Source: Candidatus Nomurabacteria bacterium (lineage in GTDB: Bacteria > Patescibacteriota > Minisyncoccia > Phycocordibacterales > UBA9973). From it: a DNA stretch of 64,000 nucleotides. Where the stretch lies: NCBI GenBank assembly GCA_052035195.1, contig JBPOHU010000003.1:17453-81452 (forward strand), in the 5' to 3' direction. Shown here one piece after another: positions 9,553 through 44,796 of this stretch. Each line of letters starts with the position of its first letter. Position 1 is the first letter of the stretch. A program made the position numbers and the translations under genes. The notes under the pieces were generated by a model, which was not told the DNA's origin, ran no database searches, and worked only from the letters and a program-made list of their open reading frames with translations.

Positions 9553-9649
9553 ATATATAAAGGTAACTTGAGATGAGGTTTTATGCAAGGGAAGAATCTC
9601 TTAGGCACAAAATATAAAAACACCAACTTCTTGGTGTTTTTATATTTTG

Positions 9650-9722
9650 TGCCCTCAGTAGGATTTGAACCTACGACCGTCTCCTTAAGAGGGAGCTGCT
9701 CTACCAGCTGAGCTATGAGGGC
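9650..9722 (-). tRNA. tRNA-Lys (anticodon CTT)
   Basis: Manual cloverleaf: acceptor GCCCTCA/TGAGGGC, D arm GCTC..GAGC, anticodon loop CTCTTAA, T arm GTAGG-TTCAAAT-CCTAC; 73 nt. Confidence 0.8.
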
Positions 9723-13665: not shown

Positions 13666-13813
13666 GGTCCTCTCGGTAGGACCGCTACGCTTATCTCCCT
13701 CGACTAAAACTGTTGCAACAGTTTTGTCTGGGCACCGACTCAACTGTTTTGTCTGCTGACAAAACATGTTTCCGTCGTTCGATTCCTACACGCACGACAA
13801 GAAGTTGTCGTGC
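13666..13813 (+). repeat. tRNA-linked structured repeat element, copy A (convergent with tRNA-Arg-GCG)
   Basis: Homologous to copies B, C and D. Blocks CTCCCTCGAC, GTCTGGGCACC, CTGCTG, AAAACAT and CCG.GTTCGATTCCTACACGCA, then terminal hairpin gcacgacaagaagttgtcgtgc. 5' end ggtcctctcggtagga is a direct copy of + strand 13859-13873 (the tRNA 3' end); gttcgattcctac is an inverted copy of the tRNA T arm. Confidence 0.6.
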
Positions 13814-13859
13814 TCTCAAGGATAATGTAAAAAGCCCCGCATGGGGGCTCATTACATTG

Positions 13860-13931
13860 TCCTCTCGGTAGGAATCGAACCTACATCATAACTTCCGCAA
13901 AGTTACGTCCTATCCATTGAACGACGAGAGG
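13860..13931 (-). tRNA. tRNA-Arg (anticodon GCG, unusual)
   Basis: Manual fold: acceptor CCTCTCG/CGAGAGG, D stem GTTC/GGAC, anticodon stem TAACT/AGTTA, loop TTGCGGA, T arm GTAGG-TTCGATT-CCTAC; A20 present; 72 nt. Confidence 0.6.
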
Positions 13932-14767: not shown

Positions 14768-14831
14768 AAAATTGATTAAATTAGTATTATGGTTTTAGTA
14801 TAGCAAATTAGTTATTTTGGTAAGGTTAATA

Positions 14832-14975
14832 GGGGATTCTCCCTCGACTTTTTCCTCGTCAGTCACTCGGAAAAGTCTGGGCACCAGCTCGCTTGTTTTT
14901 CCTGCTGGAAAAACATAGCTCCGCTGTTCGAATCCCCACACACGCAAAGCAGTTTGCGTGTTCCACCTCCGCAAA
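14832..14975 (+). repeat. tRNA-linked structured repeat element, copy B (convergent with tRNA-Ser)
   Basis: GGGGATTC...GAATCCCC closing stem. Hairpin 1 is GACTTTTTCC-loop TCGTCAGTCACTC-GGAAAAGTC. Hairpin 2 is GTTTTTCC-TGCT-GGAAAAAC. Terminal hairpin acgcaaagcagtttgcgt. GTTCGAATCCCC matches the tRNA-Ser T arm. Confidence 0.6.
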
Positions 14976-15010
14976 TAAAAATTACCCAATTTATGGGTAA
15001 TTTTTATTTG

Positions 15011-15095
15011 CGGAGGTGGGGGGATTCGAACTCCCGGTACCTTGCGGTACTCCTGTTTTCAAGACAGGTGCACTAAACCACTATGCGACACCTCC
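15011..15095 (-). tRNA. tRNA-Ser (anticodon TGA)
   Basis: Acceptor GGAGGTG/CACCTCC, anticodon stem-loop CCTGT-CTTGAAA-ACAGG, long variable arm GTACCGCAAGGTAC, T arm GGGAG-TTCGAAT-CCCCC; 85 nt. Confidence 0.8.
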
Positions 15096-18502: not shown

Positions 18503-18574
18503 GCTCCTGTAGTTAAATGGATATAACTGCGGACTTCTAAGCCGTTATTGTAGGTTCGATTCCTACCGGGAGCA
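18503..18574 (+). tRNA. tRNA-Arg (anticodon TCT)
   Basis: Acceptor GCTCCTG/CGGGAGC (one G-U), D arm GTTA-AATGGATA-TAAC, anticodon loop CTTCTAA, T arm GTAGG-TTCGATT-CCTAC. Confidence 0.7.
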
Positions 18575-18673
18575 CAAGCGAGAGAAATAGAAAGTTTATT
18601 TTCGTATTTTCGAGCGTAGCGCTCCCGGAAAGCTCAGCTTACGAGGGAGCACAAGCGAGAGAAATAGAAAGTT
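18568..18673 (+). repeat. 29-nt perfect direct repeat (18568-18596 and 18645-18673) beginning inside the tRNA-Arg(TCT) 3' end
   Basis: gggagcacaagcgagagaaatagaaagtt occurs twice, 77 nt apart; between them gctcccgg (inverse of the tRNA acceptor 3' strand) forms a mini stem with the second gggagc. Confidence 0.7.
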
Positions 18674-18706
18674 CACTTTAGTAACTCGTGACCACATTAT
18701 AGACTT

Positions 18707-18778: not shown

Positions 18779-18826
18779 CATAATACAAAAGACACCAAAT
18801 TTGGTGTCTTTTGTATTATGTGCAAA
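18779..18826 (+). terminator. Long hairpin terminator after tRNA-Val
   Basis: cacataatacaaaagacaccaaa-ttt-ggtgtcttttgtattatgtg. Confidence 0.6.
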
Positions 18827-20092: not shown

Positions 20093-20176
20093 GCGCGGGT
20101 GGCGAAATTGGTAGACGCACTACCTTGAGGTGGTAGCCCCAGCAATGGGTTGGAGGTTCAAGTCCTCTCTCGCGCA
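20093..20176 (+). tRNA. tRNA-Leu (anticodon GAG)
   Basis: Acceptor GCGCGGG/CTCGCGC, D arm GGCGAAATTGGTAGACGC, anticodon stem-loop CTACC-TTGAGGT-GGTAG, long variable arm, T arm GGAGG-TTCAAGT-CCTCT; 84 nt. Confidence 0.8.
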
Positions 20177-20225
20177 CATAAATGAAAAAGTCCCAATTAT
20201 TTGGGATTTTTTCATTTATGTGAGA

Positions 20226-20371
20226 AACAAACAAGACTGCTCTTGTTTGAGTGAGGACTTGAACAGCGGAGCTATGATTTATCACCAGATAAATCAAGCG
20301 AGCTGGTGCCTAGGCTTTCTTGAGTGGCTGACGAGAGAAAAGGCGAAGGAAAGATTCCTCTCTCGCGCACA
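20226..20371 (-). repeat. tRNA-linked structured repeat element, copy D (sense is the - strand; lies 3' of tRNA-Leu)
   Basis: Reverse complement aligns with copy B: ...CTCGTCAGCCACTC loop, CCTAGGCACCAGCTCGCTTG, hairpin ATTTATC-TGGT-GATAAAT, CATAGCTCCGCTGTTCAAGTCCTC. + strand start GAGGACTTGAAC is an inverted copy of the tRNA-Leu T arm; + strand end TCCTCTCTCGCGCAC directly copies the tRNA-Leu 3' end (20162-20176). Confidence 0.6.
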
Positions 20372-20407
20372 AAAATGATTTAGAGACAAAAACCCCGAAA
20401 GGGGTTT

Positions 20408-21409
20408 TTGTCATGTTATAATTTTTATATGCATCTTTTTATTGGTCTCATTGCTTGTCTAGTAGGAGTCTTTATTTCTTCGTATTTACTTATAAAGAAA
20501 TACAAAAACCAAAAACTAGCTTGTCCAAGAGATAATCCTTGTGACAGTGTTACTCATAGCTCTTTTTCTAAAACCTTTGGAATACCAAATGAGATTTTAG
20601 GTTTATTTTATTTTTTAGCAGTTGGTTTTTTGATAATAAATATTTTACTAACAGGGGGATCACCCTGGGTTATTTACTCTTTATTTTTTATTGTTATTTT
20701 TGGCGGATTATTTTCTGCTTACCTTGTAGGATTACAGGCTTTTGTTATCAAGGCCTGGTGTATTTGGTGTTTAGGAGTGGCTTTTTCAAATCTTGTTCTT
20801 ATTGTCAGCCTTTTTGGTATTCCAGCGGAAAATATTTTTCCAATACTTTCTTCACAGAAAGTATTATGGATTATTGTTCATAATATAGGATTTATTCTTG
20901 GTGTTGGGGCTGCTACTATCACAGATATTTTCTTCTTTAAATTTTTGAAAGACAATGTTATCACTCAAGAAGAAAAAGACACTATGGATACACTGAGCGC
21001 TGTTATTTGGGCAGGACTTGCCATCTTGATTGTTAGTGGAATAGCTCTGTATCTACCAGAACAAGCAAGACTAGCCGTGTCTTCAAAGTTTCTAATAAAA
21101 GTAGTTGTCGTTGGAGTGATTGTATTAAATGGCTTTTTGTTAAATATGATAGTTGCTCCAAATATGAGAAGGCTTTCTTTTGAAGGAGGTCTCCCAGAAA
21201 AGAGGTTTCGTCGCCTAGCTTTTGCTCTTGGTGGAATATCTTTTTCTTCTTGGTATATAGCTTTTTTCTTAGGAGTATTACGCAGAATTCCTGTCGATTT
21301 TAATTTTGCCTTATGGGCATATCTAACAATGCTTGTTTTTGTGGTAATAGGATCACAGATTACCGAAAGATTTGTAACAAAAAATCACTTACCACGAAAA
21401 TCTGAGTAA
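20408..21409 (+). CDS. Vitamin K epoxide reductase (VKOR) family domain fused to a C-terminal multi-TM domain
   Basis: KLACPRDNPCDSVTHSSFSKTFGIPNEILGLFYF and TM CxxC (AWCIWCLGV) typical of bacterial VKOR; 333 aa. Start may be the downstream MHLF. Confidence 0.65.
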   Translation: MSCYNFYMHLFIGLIACLVGVFISSYLLIKKYKNQKLACPRDNPCDSVTHSSFSKTFGIPNEILGLFYFLAVGFLIINILLTGGSPWVIYSLFFIVIFGGLFSAYLVGLQAFVIKAWCIWCLGVAFSNLVLIVSLFGIPAENIFPILSSQKVLWIIVHNIGFILGVGAATITDIFFFKFLKDNVITQEEKDTMDTLSAVIWAGLAILIVSGIALYLPEQARLAVSSKFLIKVVVVGVIVLNGFLLNMIVAPNMRRLSFEGGLPEKRFRRLAFALGGISFSSWYIAFFLGVLRRIPVDFNFALWAYLTMLVFVVIGSQITERFVTKNHLPRKSE

Positions 21410-21557: not shown

Positions 21558-21564
21558 CAAGACC

Positions 21565-21597
21565 AAAAATCTGCAACTACAATGTTGCAGATTTTTG
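21565..21597 (+). terminator. Rho-independent terminator after tRNA-His
   Basis: aaaaatctgcaac-tacaat-gttgcagattttt. Confidence 0.6.
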
Positions 21598-21599
21598 CG

Positions 21600-21840
21600 T
21601 CTATGGAGGACATTAAAGAAGCAAACTGCTTTGCTTCTGTTCGGAATCGAAAGGCGCAGCTATGCCGATAGGCAAGCGAGCCGGGGTCGCGAGTACGTAT
21701 GAGCTTGAGTTTGTCGAAGGCGAATTAGTAACTCGTGACCGATTCCCGATAGCCCCTGCTCTGACGAGAGAAAAGTCGACCGCGTGCCGCCATAGCTTTA
21801 GCGGTGGAGCAGGGAGATAAGCGTAGCGGTCCCGATATTC
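21600..21840 (-). repeat. tRNA-linked structured repeat element, copy C (sense is the - strand; convergent with tRNA-His), with internal insertion
   Basis: - strand reads GGACCGCTACGCTTATCTCCCT (22 nt identical to the copy A 5' end), then GTCGACTTTTCTCTCGTCAG, GGCTCGCTTG, CATAGCTGCGCCTTTCGATTCC and hairpin agaagcaaagcagtttgcttct (all as in copy B). + strand 21740-21757 cgattcccgatagcccc copies the tRNA-His 3' end. Also contains the TTAGTAACTCGTGACC motif. Confidence 0.55.
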
Positions 21841-41418: not shown

Positions 41419-44400
41419 ATGGATAACAATCAACAACAATCAAAATCTCAATCAGCTCTTCGAGAAGAAGAAGTACTTCAATTTTGGAAAGAAAAAGATA
41501 TTTTCAAGAAATCAGTTGAAAAGAATGTCACAGGCAAAGAATTTGTCTTTTTTGAAGGCCCACCGACAGCAAATGCAAAACCAGCACTTCACCACCTTGA
41601 AGCTCGTGCTTTCAAGGACGTGATACCTCGATACAAAACAATGCAGGGCTATCATGTAGCTCGTCGCGCAGGATGGGACACTCACGGTCTTCCAGTAGAG
41701 CTTCAAATAGAAAAAGCTCTTGGCTTAGAATCAAAGAAAGATATTGAGAAGTATGGAGTAGCAGCTTTTAATAAAGCCTGCAAAGAAAGCGTTTTCACTT
41801 ATATTAAAGATTGGGAAATTTTCACCGATCGTATGGGGTATTGGGTGGACAAAAAGAGTGCTTACTATACTTTCAACTCTTCTTATATGGAATCCCTCTG
41901 GCATATAGTCGGAGAAATAAATAAAAGAAATTTACTTTATAAAGATTACAAAGTTGTCCCATGGTGCCCTCGTTGTGGTACAGGACTTTCTTCTCATGAA
42001 CTCGCACAAGGCTATCAAGATGTAAAAGACTTGTCAGTGTATGCAAAGTTTAAAATTGTAGGACTTGAAAAAGCGTATTTTCTTGCTTGGACTACAACAC
42101 CATGGACTCTTCCAGGTAACGTAGCTTTGGCTGTTGGTAATGATATTGAATATGTTGAAGCAAAAGTAGGTGATGAAATTTTTGTTCTTGCAAAAGAAAG
42201 ACTTAGTTTACTTGCAGAAGGTTATGAGATTATTGCACAGCACAAAGGTTCTGAAATGATAGGAATGGAATATGAACCACTTTATCCATATCTCAAGAGA
42301 GAAGCAGAGAAGAAAGGGTTGGATACAACAAAAGCATTCAAGGTTTATACTGCCGACTTTGTTACAACTACTGATGGTACTGGTATTGTACATATAGCAC
42401 CGATGTATGGGGCAGATGACTTTGATCTTGGAACAAAGATGGGACTGACTAAATTCCACACTGTTAACGAAGGAGGACACTTTATTCCAGGCACTGATTT
42501 TCTAGAAGGACGTTTTGTAAAGGATGAGTCTGTAGCTGTAGACATTATCAAAGATCTTGCTGGCCGAGGACAACTTTTCAAAAAAGAAAAATACGAACAC
42601 TCATATCCACATTGTTGGCGATGTAAAACTCCGCTTTTGTATTATGCGCGAGACTCTTGGTATGTTCGCATGAGTGAGCTCCGTGACGATTTGCTCAAAG
42701 CAAACGATGACGTTAACTGGGAACCAGAACATATAAAAAATGGAAGATTTGGAGAATGGCTTCGAGAGGTTAAAGACTGGGCATTTTCTCGTGAGCGATA
42801 TTGGGGGACACCACTGCCTGTATGGGAGAGTGTCGATGGAGATAGAGTAGTTGTTGATTCTATTGATACTCTCAAGAAACTCTCTATTACTTCTCAAAAC
42901 AAATACTTCGTCATGCGCCACGGTCAAACAGACCACAATGTTCGTCAAGAATGGAATGCCACAATAACAAATCCAGATCCTCTTACAGAGAAGGGTATAC
43001 AACAAGTTAAAGATGCATCAAATAATTTCAAAGAAGATATAGATATCATTATTACTTCTCCTTTTTCTCGAACCAAAGAGTCAGCTCAAATCTTCAAAGA
43101 AACAAAAGGACTAAATGTTGAGATAATAGAAGACCCACGTATTGCCGAATGGAATGTCGGTAAAGAGTTTGATGGAAAACCATTTTCAAAATATTTTGAA
43201 GTTAGAAATGTAAATGAAGATCGGTATGGATTCAAGGCTTCTGACGGAGAATCATACTTGGATATATTGAAAAGATCAGGGGAATTTATTTATGATTTAG
43301 AATCAAAATATAAAGGCAAAAGAGTGCTTATCATGACGCACGGAGCCGTAGCTCGAGCGCTCGAACTCCATAGCCACGGTATATCTTTTGATTCTCTATA
43401 CAGAAATACTAGAGATTACAACAACTTTGAAAATGCTGATCTTCGAGAGATTAATTTTGTACCATTACCTCACAATGAAAACTTTGAGTTAGATTTACAC
43501 AAGCCTTATATCGACGAAGTGGAACTGTACAAGGATGGCAAAAAGCTCACTCGAGTAAAAGAAGTGATGGACGTATGGTTCGATAGTGGAGGTATGCCTT
43601 TTGCACAAGAGCATTATATGGGTGAAGGTACACTTTCGTATCCGGCTGATTTCATTTCAGAAGCCATAGATCAAACTCGAGGTTGGTTCTATACACTTCT
43701 TGCTGTTGGTGTACTTATGAATCGAGAGTCTCCATATAAAAATGTGATTTGTCTTGGGCACCTACTCGACAAAGACGGAAAGAAGATGAGTAAGTCTATC
43801 GGTAATATAGTTGAGCCATTTGAACAAATGGATACTTTTGGTGCGGATGCAGTAAGATGGTGGATGTATAGTGTTAATGCTCCAGGGGAGAGCAAGAACT
43901 ATGATCCTAAAAGCGTAGCCGAAATAAATAACAAAGTCTTTAATTTGTTTAACAACGTTTTATCTTTCTATGAACTTTATAGAGACAAAGAACTTGAAGA
44001 TCAAAATAATAAAAGTGAAAATATTTTGGACAAATGGATATTAGCAAGGCTAAATCAAACTCTAGCAGAGGTAACAAATTCTCTTGATGCTTATGATCTT
44101 TTCCGTCCAACTCGAGCTCTTCGAGACCTCATAGACGACCTTTCTACTTGGTATTTGCGACGAAGTCGTGATCGTATCAAAGATGGAGAAAAGCAGGCAA
44201 AGCAGACGCTCTACTATGTGCTCAAAAATACAGCTCAAGCTATGGCTCCTTTTGCACCATTTTTTGCAGAGCATGTATGGCAGAAGCTTAAGCTTGATTC
44301 AGATGCAGAAAGTGTTCACTTAGCCCTTTGGCCCGATTATCAAGAAGCTGACTCTGAGCTTATAAATAATATGCAAATTACCAGAAACTTTTGTACAGCA

Positions 44401-44796
44401 GGAAATGCGTTTCGTAAATCAAAAAATATCCCAATTAGACAGCCTCTTAAGCTTATGAAAATATCATATGATGCTTTATCAAAAGATCTTACTTCTCTTA
44501 TAGAAGAAGAACTTAATATAAAAATGGTTTTAGTTGATACTGAAATTCAGCCAGCAGGAGAGATATATGTTGATGAAGAAATTACTCCAGAACTCAAACT
44601 CGAAGGGGAATACCGCGAGCTAGTTCGCTTGGTCCAAGACATGAGAAAAGAAAAAGGTCTTACTCCACAAGATGAGATCTCTCTAACACTTCCAGAAAAG
44701 TACAATGAAATATTTGCTAAATTTGGCGAAGAATTGAAAAAGGTTGTTGGTGCGAGGGAAGTGTCAGTACAAGGAGAAGAAGTTATGCTTAGTTAG
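41419..44796 (+). CDS. ileS: Isoleucine--tRNA ligase with an embedded histidine-phosphatase (PGAM-like) domain
   Basis: HIGH-region PPTANAKPALHHLEARAFKD, editing domain, KMSKS (KKMSKSIGN). ~200-aa insertion with FVMRHGQTDHN and LIMTHGAVARAL between RYWGTPLPVWE and DVWFDSG. Confidence 0.9.
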   Translation: MDNNQQQSKSQSALREEEVLQFWKEKDIFKKSVEKNVTGKEFVFFEGPPTANAKPALHHLEARAFKDVIPRYKTMQGYHVARRAGWDTHGLPVELQIEKALGLESKKDIEKYGVAAFNKACKESVFTYIKDWEIFTDRMGYWVDKKSAYYTFNSSYMESLWHIVGEINKRNLLYKDYKVVPWCPRCGTGLSSHELAQGYQDVKDLSVYAKFKIVGLEKAYFLAWTTTPWTLPGNVALAVGNDIEYVEAKVGDEIFVLAKERLSLLAEGYEIIAQHKGSEMIGMEYEPLYPYLKREAEKKGLDTTKAFKVYTADFVTTTDGTGIVHIAPMYGADDFDLGTKMGLTKFHTVNEGGHFIPGTDFLEGRFVKDESVAVDIIKDLAGRGQLFKKEKYEHSYPHCWRCKTPLLYYARDSWYVRMSELRDDLLKANDDVNWEPEHIKNGRFGEWLREVKDWAFSRERYWGTPLPVWESVDGDRVVVDSIDTLKKLSITSQNKYFVMRHGQTDHNVRQEWNATITNPDPLTEKGIQQVKDASNNFKEDIDIIITSPFSRTKESAQIFKETKGLNVEIIEDPRIAEWNVGKEFDGKPFSKYFEVRNVNEDRYGFKASDGESYLDILKRSGEFIYDLESKYKGKRVLIMTHGAVARALELHSHGISFDSLYRNTRDYNNFENADLREINFVPLPHNENFELDLHKPYIDEVELYKDGKKLTRVKEVMDVWFDSGGMPFAQEHYMGEGTLSYPADFISEAIDQTRGWFYTLLAVGVLMNRESPYKNVICLGHLLDKDGKKMSKSIGNIVEPFEQMDTFGADAVRWWMYSVNAPGESKNYDPKSVAEINNKVFNLFNNVLSFYELYRDKELEDQNNKSENILDKWILARLNQTLAEVTNSLDAYDLFRPTRALRDLIDDLSTWYLRRSRDRIKDGEKQAKQTLYYVLKNTAQAMAPFAPFFAEHVWQKLKLDSDAESVHLALWPDYQEADSELINNMQITRNFCTAGNAFRKSKNIPIRQPLKLMKISYDALSKDLTSLIEEELNIKMVLVDTEIQPAGEIYVDEEITPELKLEGEYRELVRLVQDMRKEKGLTPQDEISLTLPEKYNEIFAKFGEELKKVVGAREVSVQGEEVMLS

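Follow-up and report, generated by a model that had tools for sequence, protein, structure and literature searches.

A tRNA-Leu(GAG)-tail insertion and its apparently undescribed family of non-coding elements in Patescibacteria

Introduction

In tDNA islands, the end of the tRNA gene is regenerated and a displaced copy of it decays (PMC4383910). In Patescibacteria, tRNA genes can also carry group I introns, which sit in the anticodon loop at position 35/36 (PMC13011429). At the level of replication, template switching yields perfect hairpins and replaces palindromes (PMC8794818, PMC7202029).

Here we analyzed a 64,000-nucleotide stretch of Candidatus Nomurabacteria DNA (the window), in which non-coding elements occupy 4-5 of the 7 tRNA genes. 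The element downstream of tRNA-Leu(GAG), copy D, is one member of an apparently undescribed family of non-coding tRNA/tmRNA-tail insertions in Patescibacteria (CPR), and our literature searches, which covered CPR, tRNA, MITEs, tRNA-like RNAs, guided recombinases and integrases, found no description of such an element. CPR genomes are small and poor in classical mobile elements, and much of the tRNA machinery is reduced in this phylum.

Results

Structure of copy D

The target gene of copy D, tRNA-Leu(GAG), lies on the plus strand at 20093-20176. It had been named in the initial annotation of this DNA, and both ARAGORN (20093-20177) and Rfam (RF00005, 20093-20176, 49.9 bits) recognized it. The T-loop occupies 20157-20163, the T-stem 3' strand 20164-20168 and the acceptor 3' strand 20169-20175, and the discriminator A is at 20176. 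A 15-nt direct copy of the tRNA 3' end had also been reported. The copy is real, with exactly two occurrences of the 15-mer TCCTCTCTCGCGCAC (20163-20177 and 20356-20370) and 0 expected in shuffles; its coordinates had been given one base off, as 20162-20176. The perfect repeat is 16 nt long (TCCTCTCTCGCGCACA, ending in …CACA), and its proximal copy DR1 (20163-20178) and distal copy DR2 (20356-20371), both on the plus strand, are exact duplicates, with 0 expected by chance. It continues as [T/A]AAATGA to give 23 nt with one mismatch. DR1 is the functional tRNA-Leu 3' end (T60 to A73, plus CA), and DR2 is the original tRNA 3' end, displaced or duplicated.

DR1 is followed by the terminator palindrome H (taaatgaaaaagtcccaa-ttat-ttgggattttttcattta) at 20179-20218, with its core stem at 20191-20206, which was detected by a terminator scan and folds as ssDNA with z = -10.7. 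A GC-containing hairpin with a T-run identifies it as an intrinsic (rho-independent) terminator, an assignment that applies to part H only. The scan scored the stem at 20206-20191 as terminator-like on the minus strand, and on the plus strand the same stem is followed by TTTTTTC; because an A-tract and a T-tract flank the hairpin, H is bidirectional by sequence. Its arms run outward into the tRNA end and the mirror of that end.

The mirror begins with a' (tgtgaga, 20219-20225, plus strand), the reverse complement of TCTC[gcgc]ACA, that is, of the 3' end of the local acceptor with a 4-nt deletion. Hairpin P4/Q (caaacaaga-ctgc-tcttgtttg, 20228-20249) lies between this acceptor mirror and the T-stem mirror. 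Alignment A3 and RNAalifold showed compensatory changes in all 9 pairs of P4. The base of this hairpin is conserved in sequence family-wide, reading ACGCAA(A)G…C(T)TTGCT on the element strand. The second part of the mirror, b' (gaggacttgaac, 20253-20264, plus strand), covers the T-loop and the T-stem 3' strand and is the exact reverse complement of the tRNA sequence GTTCAAGTCCTC. The terminator, inverted T-arm copy and conserved core that had been described after tRNA-Leu are all present, and the inverted copy additionally includes the acceptor end, set apart from the T-loop copy by the conserved hairpin P4.

The core hairpin P3 (20264-20306) was placed by pattern matches and covariation, and the covariance model R1 matched 20224-20314 with 88 bits. 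P3 contains an invariant internal loop (C-GGA-G or C-GA-G on the tRNA-sense strand, TC or TCC on the opposite strand), a bulged base and a variable tip, and its minus strand carries GCACCAGCTCGCTTG and CATAGCTCCGCTG. Its stem covaries from CAGC/GCTG to CGAC/GTCG and from GCT/AGC to AAC/GTT to GGT/ACC. Alignments and folding assigned the remaining segment (20307-20355) to a junction, hairpin P2 (loop gagtggctgacga, plus strand) and a type-1 right end (…ggcgaaggaaagat). A second palindromic terminator, read from the sequence (gacaaaaacccc-gaaa-ggggtttttgtc, 20385-20412), lies between DR2 and the VKOR promoter, outside the repeat-bounded unit. Five independent assemblies (L022-L026) have the same sequence for the region of copy D, which excludes an assembly artefact.

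Other copies in the window

Copy A (13677-13858, plus strand; covariance model match 13727-13817, 89.9 bits) lies at tRNA-Arg(GCG) (13860-13931, minus strand), with the 15-nt repeat GTCCTCTCGGTAGGA at 13677-13691 and 13859-13873. Copy B (14826-15009, plus strand; match 14876-14965, 102.6 bits) lies at tRNA-Ser(TGA) (15011-15095, minus strand) and has a perfect mirror and a degenerate distal repeat. Copy D had been proposed to be the reverse complement of copy B over more than 100 nt. Alignment of reverse-complemented 20226-20371 with 14832-14975 bore this out with 104/131 identities and a score of 44, compared with -17.8 +/- 5.4 for 500 dinucleotide shuffles (z = 11.4) and -17 in the wrong orientation. 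We additionally found a fourth copy, E, after tRNA-His and a fragment, F, after tRNA-Arg-tct. Copy E (21559-21837, minus strand; match 21613-21692, 74.8 bits), analyzed by comparison with L027 and L029, consists of a type-2 unit up to the repeat CGATTCCCGATAGCCCC (21740-21756) and then an older type-1 fragment ending in TCCCGATA (21830-21837); its two units are stacked insertions.

Empty sites in relatives

Comparison with related genomes showed that the element has been inserted between the tRNA and the sequence that originally followed it, a point that the initial annotation had not made. The gene order L19 - tRNA-Leu - VKOR - tRNA-His - rhodanese is conserved in relatives, and the syntenic relatives L029 and L030 have empty sites at the same tRNA-Leu and tRNA-His, where palindrome H is also missing. 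The flank downstream of DR2 resembles the native trailer of L030, and a precise empty site for copy D would have tRNA-Leu joined straight to …AAAATGATTTAGAG. In L055, a further genome, an element is present at tRNA-Val, where the window has none, the copy at tRNA-Leu belongs to a different subfamily, and tRNA-Ser and tRNA-His carry no copy. A decayed remnant is present at tRNA-Val of L029. Stacked units were found in copy E and at L004, L006, L017, L075 and L081, the last of which has identical mirror modules with different cores.

Distribution of the family

The covariance model gave 104 matches, 75 of which follow a tRNA or tmRNA gene at a distance of no more than 150 nt. All 75 proximal copies are convergent with the gene, and their targets are tmRNA and tRNAs of 17 amino-acid identities. 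The parts always keep one order and orientation: the bidirectional terminator hairpin, the tRNA 3'-end mirror split by P4, and the two-hairpin core (P3, P2). The elements measure about 150-200 bp (units 146-220 bp) and contain no ORF. They occupy 74/125 tRNAs in the fetched loci, a biased sample. All genome matches (21/21) fell in Patescibacteria, and the viral contigs, phages and plasmids searched gave no match. Saccharibacteria, Paceibacteria and other classes share a homologous core of ~100 nt, and in nearest-neighbour comparisons of the non-tRNA cores the closest matches sit at other tRNAs. Matches without a tRNA (L034, L041, L047, L051, L053, L056, L074) were chance hits inside unrelated GC-rich tyrosine-recombinase ORFs (…RLHDLRHSFAVH…).

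Rfam searches at the gathering score and at E <= 10 matched only the tRNAs, with nothing credible in the element. Inspection by eye of hammerhead (CUGACGAG…GAAA), C/D-box k-turn, RNase P, SRP and the tRNA-like domain of tmRNA gave no fit. The group I tRNA introns of Patescibacteria were also rejected, because the element lies downstream of an intact tRNA, has a different fold and does not match the intron model. No recurrent protein was found within 3 kb of 27 copies, and the 50 ORFs scanned in the window, which holds only housekeeping genes, included no recombinase.

The shared core bears on whether the elements are mobile at all. They could be by-products of template switching at palindromic tRNA terminators, with the core explained by convergence or ancient common descent. 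Template switching does make perfect hairpins (PMC8794818), relatives differ by swapped inner stems in an ordinary terminator, and 9% of unoccupied tRNAs, compared with 2% in foreign-tRNA controls, have a terminator palindrome that extends at least 7 nt into the tRNA. However, local duplication cannot yield a core of ~100 nt that is homologous over classes; different core subfamilies occur at the same tRNA in relatives, units are stacked, and part order and orientation do not vary in 75/75 copies. The non-mobile explanation is strongly disfavoured by the shared core, and we regard it as extremely improbable. The mirror was also considered as a general feature of CPR terminators and rejected, since unoccupied tRNAs are only weakly enriched (9% vs 2% in controls) and occupied sites reach 22%.

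Repeats and mirrors follow the local tRNA

Across the family, the direct repeat starts halfway along the T-loop (position 56/57), ends with the discriminator base and measures 15-21 bp. That range also holds for the 19 perfect repeats, whose lengths have a mode of 19, and identity ends where the tRNA ends. The proximal repeat is the working tRNA end and the distal one a spare copy, passively decaying in older insertions; where the two differ, the proximal one fits the tRNA 5' strand 33:1.

Three parts, the direct repeat, the acceptor mirror a' and the T-loop mirror b', fit the tRNA beside them much more closely than shuffled controls do. Among 73 copies, a' is perfect in 28 and b' has at most 2 mismatches in 50, and in many copies b' has 2-4 mismatches even beside a perfect repeat. 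The best match of the mirror among 108 distinct tRNA ends is the local tRNA in 42/73 copies, and none of the 73 carries a mirror of a foreign tRNA, imperfect mirrors being degenerate local versions. Perfect mirrors occur in 7/27 copies with a perfect distal repeat and in 13/24 with a decayed one. The proposal that local tRNA sequence is re-created or selected at the element ends, drawn from one architecture at tRNAs of different identity, is supported by these data and generalizes family-wide.

Stem mismatches amount to 2.4% for occupied tRNAs vs 1.0%, a non-significant excess (p = 0.067); this result and the 33:1 fit of the proximal repeat leave the import of foreign tRNA tails unsupported. 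A retro-element primed by mature tRNA was rejected on the grounds that the repeats have no consistent CCA and include gene trailers.

A transposon-like insertion just after the tRNA could produce such repeats. Staggered cuts ~18 bp apart, in the T-loop and at the tRNA 3' end, would be followed by gap repair that duplicates positions 56-73, and the mirror would later be converted to local sequence by palindrome homogenization, a process akin to Cas1/casposase integration or CRISPR repeat duplication. The tRNA would never be broken, so any tRNA could be hit, and since the distance from T-loop to 3' end is constant in all tRNAs and tmRNA, one fixed stagger would fit every target. Target duplication agrees with several observations: both repeats always have the sequence of the local lineage, perfect repeats fall in a narrow range, related cores occur at different tRNAs, and mirrors are no better beside perfect distal repeats than beside decayed ones, as expected if they improved after insertion. 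Casposases, moreover, duplicate 14-15 bp at tRNA 3' ends (PMC6977970). Casposon duplications, however, share no more than the last ~4 bp with the tRNA and require TIRs and a casposase, neither of which was found here. The absence of any foreign-tRNA mirror in the copies also counts against target duplication, as does P4, which continuous templated copying over the terminator should erase and which nearly every copy has at the same junction. DDE transposases are not known to make 18-bp duplications. On balance, we consider target duplication unlikely.

Base pairing at the DNA and RNA levels

In the family alignment, compensatory changes occur in 20/23 pairs. Wobbles are rare and strand-symmetric (26 vs 28, against 778 Watson-Crick pairs), and strand assignment by wobble pairs accordingly gave no signal. 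The tRNA-sense strand has the lower folding energy in 25/25 copies, a preference that may stem from loop sequences common to all copies and is thus not independent evidence. Related copies have hairpin stems swapped wholesale for other perfect palindromes, with the core remaining ~97% identical, and the inner stems of the plain terminator in relatives are swapped likewise. The bidirectional terminators box the element in and leave no room for a promoter on either side.

The covariation could indicate a functional non-coding RNA tied to tRNA genes, which may act in tRNA maturation, in quality control or as a decoy. Read in the tRNA sense, its layout would be acceptor 5' strand - P4 - T-stem 5' strand - [P3, P2] - T-stem 3' strand - acceptor 3' strand. 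Terminator read-through would yield a tRNA-like molecule that has its neighbour's acceptor and T stems, and RNase P and 3' processing would free it; alternatively, a convergent RNA would be made from the opposite strand and end at the common terminator. Besides the 20/23 covarying pairs and the 25/25 folding preference, such an RNA would account for purine-rich conserved loops, for a core conserved at ~97%, with a compensatory swap, between genomes with 82% identical VKOR proteins, and for the cloverleaf-like MFE structure of copy D (-53 kcal/mol, z = -3.8). The high occupancy in the biased sample points the same way, and copies with no terminator between tRNA and element (L020 second unit, L017, L016) must be co-transcribed, which also counts for an RNA. 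However, typical structured RNAs do not show such rare, strand-symmetric wobbles, and many copies show decay in the distal strand of what would be the acceptor/T helix. The insulating terminators and the lack of promoter space argue against such an RNA, and variable presence in close relatives, stacking and decay are the behaviour of a selfish insertion. No Rfam family matched even at the relaxed threshold. Overall, an RNA function appears decidedly unlikely.

The interleaved arrangement of the parts suggests a further possibility, in which targeting is guided by nucleic acid. The hairpins would form the scaffold of a guide (RNA or ssDNA), and the two slots flanking P4 would pair with the tRNA 3' end. 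Such a guide would steer a trans-encoded recombinase, analogous to IS110 bridge RNAs, IS1111 seekRNAs and IS200/IS605 DNA guides, as solo modules. Conserved scaffold modules (P4 base, P3 loop) do alternate with target-matching slots, cores are common to different targets, and insertion is strictly cognate over at least 18 targets, which a protein alone is unlikely to achieve. Bulged, imperfect hairpins such as P3 resemble those recognized by single-strand DNA recombinases, which counts for guided targeting, and so does the documented occurrence of solo ncRNA modules of an IS110-family element (PMC12288879). However, no recombinase gene lies near any copy examined, the matches are contiguous helices of 8-12 nt and not short loop guides, and many active-looking copies have imperfect slots, as seen for b' beside perfect repeats. 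The duplication of 15-21 bp also differs from the 2-nt core of IS110 and from duplication-free IS200/IS605 insertion. Guided targeting is, in our estimate, very doubtful.

Discussion

The explanation that we favour, tentatively and at somewhat below an even chance, is that the family consists of small non-autonomous mobile DNA elements that insert at the T-loop-to-3'-end segment of the cognate tRNA gene and are mobilized in trans. A recombinase or transposase provided in trans would read the universal T-loop/T-arm and the conserved hairpins of the element at the DNA level. Recombination into the cognate tRNA gene would follow the classical 'regenerated target plus displaced fragment' geometry and leave a fragment of 15-21 bp, and the element would amount to little more than a bare attachment site with a replacement tRNA tail and its own terminator. 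The survivors would be only those insertions that leave a working tRNA, which would result in perfect cognate specificity. The mirror and stems would be kept Watson-Crick by DNA-level palindrome homogenization (replication template switching), by selection on DNA hairpins, or by both. Recombination would also swap cores between sites, and the modules of L081 and the nearest cores at other tRNAs support such exchange. No enzyme came to light in any of the searches, which leaves the recombination step wholly inferred.

Several observations weigh against parts of trans-mobilization. A single recombinase for at least 18 tRNA genes would be unprecedented among tyrosine integrases, which usually have one or few targets. 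A pre-carried tail sits poorly with related cores at many tRNAs and with tails that track lineage-specific tRNA substitutions, and a mirror copy has no role in classical att sites. Neither an excised form of the element nor polymorphism within a population was seen. The stem-mismatch result (p = 0.067) and the lack of imported mismatched tails fit simple target duplication equally well, and the folding preference in 25/25 copies, with the tRNA-like cloverleaf, leaves room for an RNA function. Taken as one alternative, a programmable guide with a putative trans-acting recombinase, or a tRNA-like RNA acting on its neighbour tRNA, is possible, though on the unlikely side.

If the elements are indeed mobilized in trans, CPR carry a very successful tRNA-gene parasite, reduced to about 190 bp, that takes up a large fraction of the tRNA genes of some genomes and leaves its target unbroken in every case. 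The annotation of tRNA loci would change, with every insertion adding a terminator and a pseudo-tRNA fragment, and the elements would serve as precise markers of strain-level variation. Trans-mobilization would also point to an enzyme acting at the T-loop-to-3'-end segment of essentially any tRNA/tmRNA gene; no known enzyme or mechanism accounts for the targeting of so many different tRNAs. Practical interest would attach to a recombinase whose landing site is universal yet safe, or to a guided one. The elements also provide a natural data set on palindromes created and kept perfect without RNA-level selection. If a tRNA-like RNA is made instead, it would add a new layer to tRNA biology in CPR, and either a guide or a tRNA-like RNA would constitute a tRNA-by-tRNA addressable system without a described counterpart, implying a new recombinase or RNA-protein machine.

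Among known systems, MITEs, REPINs/RAYT and PATEs of IS200/IS605 (PMC3337134, PMC3184786) are likewise small, non-coding, multi-copy and hairpin-rich, with the enzyme encoded elsewhere, and the hairpins have conserved bulges like those read by single-strand DNA transposases. In contrast to the present family, their terminal repeats or REP hairpins are common to all family members, their target duplications are short or absent, and none of them is tRNA-specific. MITEs are defined by TIRs common to the copies and to a parent IS; here the only terminal inverted repeat is target sequence, which differs per tRNA, and no parent IS was found. The repeats of 15-21 bp also exceed the MITE target duplication of about 2-10 bp. 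HUH single-strand transposition (IS200/IS605-type, PATE or REPIN) uses subterminal imperfect hairpins with conserved unpaired bases, read as ssDNA; the invariant internal loop and bulge of P3, the Watson-Crick-only stems and the symmetric wobbles are compatible with DNA hairpins. HUH-type elements insert 3' of a 4-5-nt target with no duplication, unlike the long repeat seen here.

The IS110/IS1111 systems (PMC12288879) resemble the present element in having a structured non-coding scaffold with target-matching segments and in occurring as modules without a recombinase gene (solo ISPpu9 modules). They differ in that no DEDD/serine recombinase gene was found here, long helices take the place of guide loops, and the repeat is 15-21 bp instead of a 2-nt core. 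The tRNA-like RNAs (tmRNA domain, viral tRNA-like structures, mascRNA) and tRNA 3' external transcribed spacers share the acceptor/T-stem stack with a side arm and possibly co-transcription. Unlike these, the present element matches no Rfam family, its T-loop nucleotides are paired or interrupted by about 100 nt, its distal helix strand decays, and its stems lack the strand-specific wobbles of functional RNAs.

Casposons and CRISPR integration (PMC6977970, PMC5137440) share long duplications (14-15 bp and a whole CRISPR repeat, respectively) and, for casposons, site-specific insertion at the tRNA 3' end; in the same way, arrays would grow if insertion recurred at the proximal copy. In casposons, however, the duplication includes just the final ~4 bp of the tRNA and continues downstream, unlike the present one, which lies inside the tRNA at positions 56-73, and casposons are large, with TIRs, Cas1 and PolB, none of which was found at the present element.

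Finally, tDNA islands and prophages with tyrosine integrases (Islander, PMC4383910) span kilobases and use one or few targets per integrase lineage, whereas the present elements have 150-200 bp, carry neither integrase nor cargo, and place related cores at 17 tRNA identities plus tmRNA. A target mirror split by a hairpin and a structured core are also not known features of att sites. What the two share is the use of the 3' parts of tRNA/tmRNA genes as targets in a fixed orientation, a regenerated end and displaced fragment that form direct repeats of 15-21 bp starting in the T-loop region, tandem accretion at one site, and presence or absence that varies between relatives.

Copy D at tRNA-Leu(GAG)

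The tRNA-Leu(GAG) gene, one of seven tRNA genes in the window, lies at 20093-20176 (Rfam, 49.9 bits). The terminal 15 nt of this gene, TCCTCTCTCGCGCAC, have two exact occurrences in the window, at 20163-20177 and 20356-20370, with 0 expected by chance; the initial annotation had reported this repeat, and its twofold presence stood while its coordinates were corrected by one base. By sequence reading, the direct repeat extends to 16 nt and is followed by [T/A]AAATGA. Between the repeats lie, in order, a terminator palindrome (core stem 20191-20206 in the terminator scan), a mirror of the acceptor end (tgtgaga), a hairpin (20228-20249), the mirror gaggacttgaac, which exactly mirrors GTTCAAGTCCTC of tRNA-Leu(GAG), and two more hairpins. 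The sequence confirmed the architecture claimed for this site, namely tRNA end, terminator, inverted copy, core and direct copy, and copy D is identical in five independent assemblies. The proposed homology with copy B at tRNA-Ser was also borne out: the reverse complement of 20226-20371 matched 14832-14975 at 104/131 positions, with z = 11.4 against 500 dinucleotide shuffles, and the wrong orientation scored like a shuffle. The analysis supports the earlier suggestion of a mechanism by which the element ends come to carry the local tRNA sequence, either re-created or selected.

Anatomy and distribution of the element family

Every well-preserved copy has the same order on the tRNA strand: the tRNA, ending in the repeat X (positions ~56-73); the terminator palindrome H; a', a mirror of the acceptor 3' end and trailer; the hairpin P4; b', a mirror of the T-stem 3' strand and T-loop; the core, composed of P3 (with an invariant internal loop and bulge) and then P2; X again; and the original downstream DNA. 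Locus L071, a textbook example, has GATTCTCCCTACTCGCAC as its 18-nt repeat, GTGCGAGTAG as a' and a terminator palindrome that is perfect over 44 nt. Core subtypes 1 and 2 are found together within single genomes, and reduced variants also exist. The tRNA-derived parts of 73 copies match the local tRNA far better than shuffled controls: a' was perfect in 28/73 (mean mismatches 1.3 vs 2.5 in the control), b' had ≤2 mismatches in 50/73 (2.1 vs 4.5), and the distal repeat, compared as a 15-mer, was perfect in 19/73 and had ≤2 mismatches in 37/73 (3.1 vs 6.4). Perfect repeats measure 15-21 bp (mode 19), and their identity ends at the tRNA end. The invariant core string CATAGCTCCGCTG (element strand; e.g. 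20261-20276 of the window, minus strand) is directly fused to the T-loop copy and resembles tRNA positions 6-18 (U8-A9, D-stem, D-loop; compare CATAGCTCAGCTGG of tRNA-Lys, 9702-9717); judging from this likeness, the scaffold itself may be descended from a tRNA.

Four copies in the window are complete, namely A (tRNA-Arg-GCG), B (tRNA-Ser), D (tRNA-Leu) and E (tRNA-His), and a fragment, F, lies behind tRNA-Arg-TCT; all are on the strand opposite the respective tRNA. The exact core pattern occurred at 21 loci among 185,579 species genomes, all of Patescibacteria (Paceibacteria, Saccharibacteria, Taylor-, Kaiser- and Nomurabacteria, Minisyncoccia). There was no match in viral contigs, and 54 loci were found in metagenomes, 7 of them chance matches inside recombinase ORFs of unrelated GC-rich bacteria. 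Loci L034, L041, L047, L053, L056, L051 and L074 were rejected as elements because the pattern there coincides with the conserved RLHDLRHSFAVH box of tyrosine-recombinase genes; the pattern, 22 bases long, should be reused with caution, since it also matches such genes in unrelated GC-rich bacteria.

The covariance model R1, built from 24 copies, shows compensatory changes in 20 of its 23 base pairs. It detected 104 copies in the fetched DNA, of which 75 lie ≤150 nt downstream of a tRNA or tmRNA 3' end, convergent with the gene in 75/75; another 7 sit behind a first unit as the second or third of a stack, and the remainder are mostly at contig ends or in decayed contexts. The partner genes are tRNAs of 17 amino-acid identities, tmRNA and a single tRNA whose anticodon is UUA. 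The element matched no Rfam family even at E ≤ 10, there was no match in phages or plasmids, and no description of the family was found in the literature. The model missed a reduced variant at L055 (7700-7925, minus strand, downstream of tRNA-Leu-GAG), which lacks P4 and has a minimal P3 (GGC-GGA-GAAGC…GCTTC-GA-GCC). Both the invariant GGA/GA internal loop and a distal repeat of 14 nt are retained in this variant, so R1 does not capture the full breadth of the family.

The UUA tRNA (L048 1487-1560; 72.7 bits as an Rfam tRNA, labelled 'Stop' by ARAGORN) reads the UAA stop codon and may be a suppressor tRNA or mark codon reassignment in the CPR lineage concerned; one element follows it, and a further element-like unit on the same strand immediately precedes it. 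Elements whose mirror and repeat segments are clear adjoin, at L004 (2483-2700) and L050 (4496-4600), structured RNA 3' ends (…CCGAGACCGACGTGGGGCACA and …CCCACAATCACCGCCA, respectively) that neither ARAGORN nor Rfam called as tRNA. These may be atypical or intron-containing tRNA genes missed by standard tools.

Target specificity

The non-tRNA part of a copy is closest to copies at other tRNAs (Thr-Gly, Ala-Asp, Arg-Pro and, in the window, Leu-Ser), also for two copies in one MAG; the sole exception is an orthologous tmRNA pair. The shared core argues strongly against a non-mobile by-product of replication, which we consider extremely improbable. Two stacked units at L081 share a near-identical trailer-mirror-P4 segment (~68 nt) and have different cores, so exchange or insertion of a core proceeds separately from the mirror module.

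The local tRNA was the best mirror match among 108 tRNA ends in 42/73 copies, and the other mirrors were degenerate local versions; no mirror of a foreign tRNA was seen in the 73 copies. A fixed, Cas1-like duplication of ~18 bp of target would protect the tRNA whichever target was hit. Foreign mirrors and loss of P4, both of which it predicts, were not seen, and we regard it as unlikely. Guide-based targeting through two slots flanking P4 seems less likely still, and is in our judgement highly doubtful. Mirrors were perfect in 7/27 copies with perfect distal repeats vs 13/24 with decayed repeats, that is, no better where the distal repeat is perfect, so mirrors are kept up or improve with time, during which the distal repeat decays. 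The share of terminator palindromes that extend ≥7 nt into the tRNA was 22% at occupied sites, 9% at unoccupied ones and 2% in controls.

Gain, loss and decay of copies

The order L19 - tRNA-Leu - VKOR - tRNA-His - rhodanese is kept in relatives located via the VKOR protein. In L029 (68% protein identity), the VKOR start codon lies 30 nt after tRNA-Leu and rhodanese 9 nt after tRNA-His, with neither element nor terminator at either tRNA; the tRNA-Leu site of L030 is empty too. The flank beyond the distal repeat of copy D resembles the native trailer of L030, which identifies the distal copy as the original end of the tRNA. The syntenic relative L055 has a full element at tRNA-Val, where the window has none; its tRNA-Leu is occupied by a different, reduced subfamily, and its tRNA-Ser and tRNA-His have no element. 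L029 carries a decayed remnant at tRNA-Val. The element is an insertion, gained and lost between relatives. Units are stacked at several sites; window copy E is a type-2 unit proximal to an older type-1 fragment. At stem positions that are not the same in both repeats, it is the proximal base that pairs with the tRNA 5' strand in 33/34 cases, and the distal copy is therefore a decaying pseudo-fragment.

The repeats of tDNA islands have the geometry of a 'regenerated target plus displaced fragment' (PMC4383910). Those of the element show this geometry as well, which by analogy suggests a bare attachment-site element. On integration, it would supply a substitute tRNA tail with its own terminator; cognate specificity would be imposed by selection, and the palindromes would be held perfect through template switching. 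The reading with the best support is that the element is non-autonomous mobile DNA, specialised on the segment from T-loop to 3' end of tRNA and tmRNA genes and mobilised in trans, an account we hold to be almost as probable as not; its probability is lowered by the spread over at least 18 tRNAs, for which it does not account. Two tests set this mobile-element reading against target duplication and gave results that fit both: stem mismatches amounted to 2.4% in occupied vs 1.0% in unoccupied tRNAs (p = 0.067), and the 33:1 test showed no imported mismatched tRNA tails.

The tRNA-Arg(TCT)/tRNA-Val spacer (18576-18706; 35 nt in L030) has a 29-nt direct repeat, GGGAGCACAAGCGAGAGAAATAGAAAGTT (18569-18597 and 18645-18673), covering the final 8 nt of tRNA-Arg(TCT) and 21 nt of trailer, an inverted GCGCTCCCGG and the 16-nt fragment TTAGTAACTCGTGACC, identical to the type-2 element end and present at 21724-21739 as well. 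From its sequence, the spacer seems to contain an element that was disrupted or lost part of its length, and its duplication is atypical. The empty-site relatives encode CCA in tRNA-Leu(GAG) (…GGCACCA; L029 2960-2968, L030 2925-2932), and both repeat copies of the window gene (20169-20179) read …GCGCACA, with one C fewer; encoded CCA may tend to be lost from occupied tRNA genes.

Constraint at the RNA or DNA level

The hairpins covary strongly yet are almost purely Watson-Crick, with 778 Watson-Crick pairs, 26 wobbles on one strand and 28 on the other, and 50 transversion mismatches; wobbles of ordinary structured RNAs are many and confined to one strand. Window copy E and the copy found in an 82% relative have ~97% identical cores with a clean GCT/AGC to GGT/ACC swap, and the terminator, P3 tip and P4 stem are swapped for unrelated perfect palindromes. 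The element is enclosed by bidirectional terminators, leaving no promoter space on either side. A DNA-level constraint is favoured because of the almost purely Watson-Crick covariation, the wholesale palindrome swaps and the enclosing terminators. In single-stranded DNA, the stretch from the T-arm through the mirror folds into a single long palindrome from which P4 branches off (z = -10.7).

Evidence opposing a DNA-level constraint was also obtained. The tRNA-sense strand folds better in 25/25 copies tested (mean advantage 6.3 kcal/mol), that of copy D into a cloverleaf-like structure (-53 kcal/mol, z = -3.8, vs -44.6, z = -2.9, for the opposite strand), and a few copies have no terminator in front. 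A functional tRNA-like or convergent RNA is quite unlikely in our estimation.

Replication template switching makes and maintains perfect stems in single events (PMC8794818, PMC7202029). The plain tRNA-Val terminator (18780-18822) keeps the outer arms ATAATACAAA… of its L029 counterpart, and the inner perfect palindrome differs (GACACCA vs GCCCTGAA), the behaviour also seen in copy E. In the window, the terminator palindrome reaches 4 nt into the tRNA (GCAC…GTGC), and tRNA-Lys (9600-9660) has a 5-nt palindrome extension. Such patterns suggest that palindrome renewal by template switching acts genome-wide in these organisms.

Search for an enzyme and comparison with known systems

The element unit contains no ORF, and no protein family recurs ≤3 kb from the element across 27 copies. 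Housekeeping genes account for the 50 window ORFs scanned (Pol I, RecA, RecO, RuvA, RuvX, FtsK, SSB, aminoacyl-tRNA synthetases, type IV pilus genes and others); none of these encodes an integrase, a transposase, Cas1, an HUH enzyme or a reverse transcriptase. In the isoleucyl/class-I tRNA synthetase of the window (41419-44796, 1125 aa), two parts of the catalytic domain are separated by a histidine-phosphatase domain (PF00300, residues 497-664), an unusual insertion.

The element departs from the defining features of every family considered. Unlike tDNA islands, it has no integrase and uses many targets; unlike MITEs, it has a long duplication and no family-wide terminal repeats. It differs from casposons (PMC6977970) in that the duplication lies inside the tRNA and Cas1, PolB and TIRs are absent, from IS200/IS605-type elements in having a duplication, and from IS110 bridge RNAs in having no recombinase and long helices instead of guide loops. 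That it is something categorically new, through guided targeting or a tRNA-like RNA, appears rather doubtful. By analogy, its mode of action would be most like that of a miniature tDNA-integrating element.
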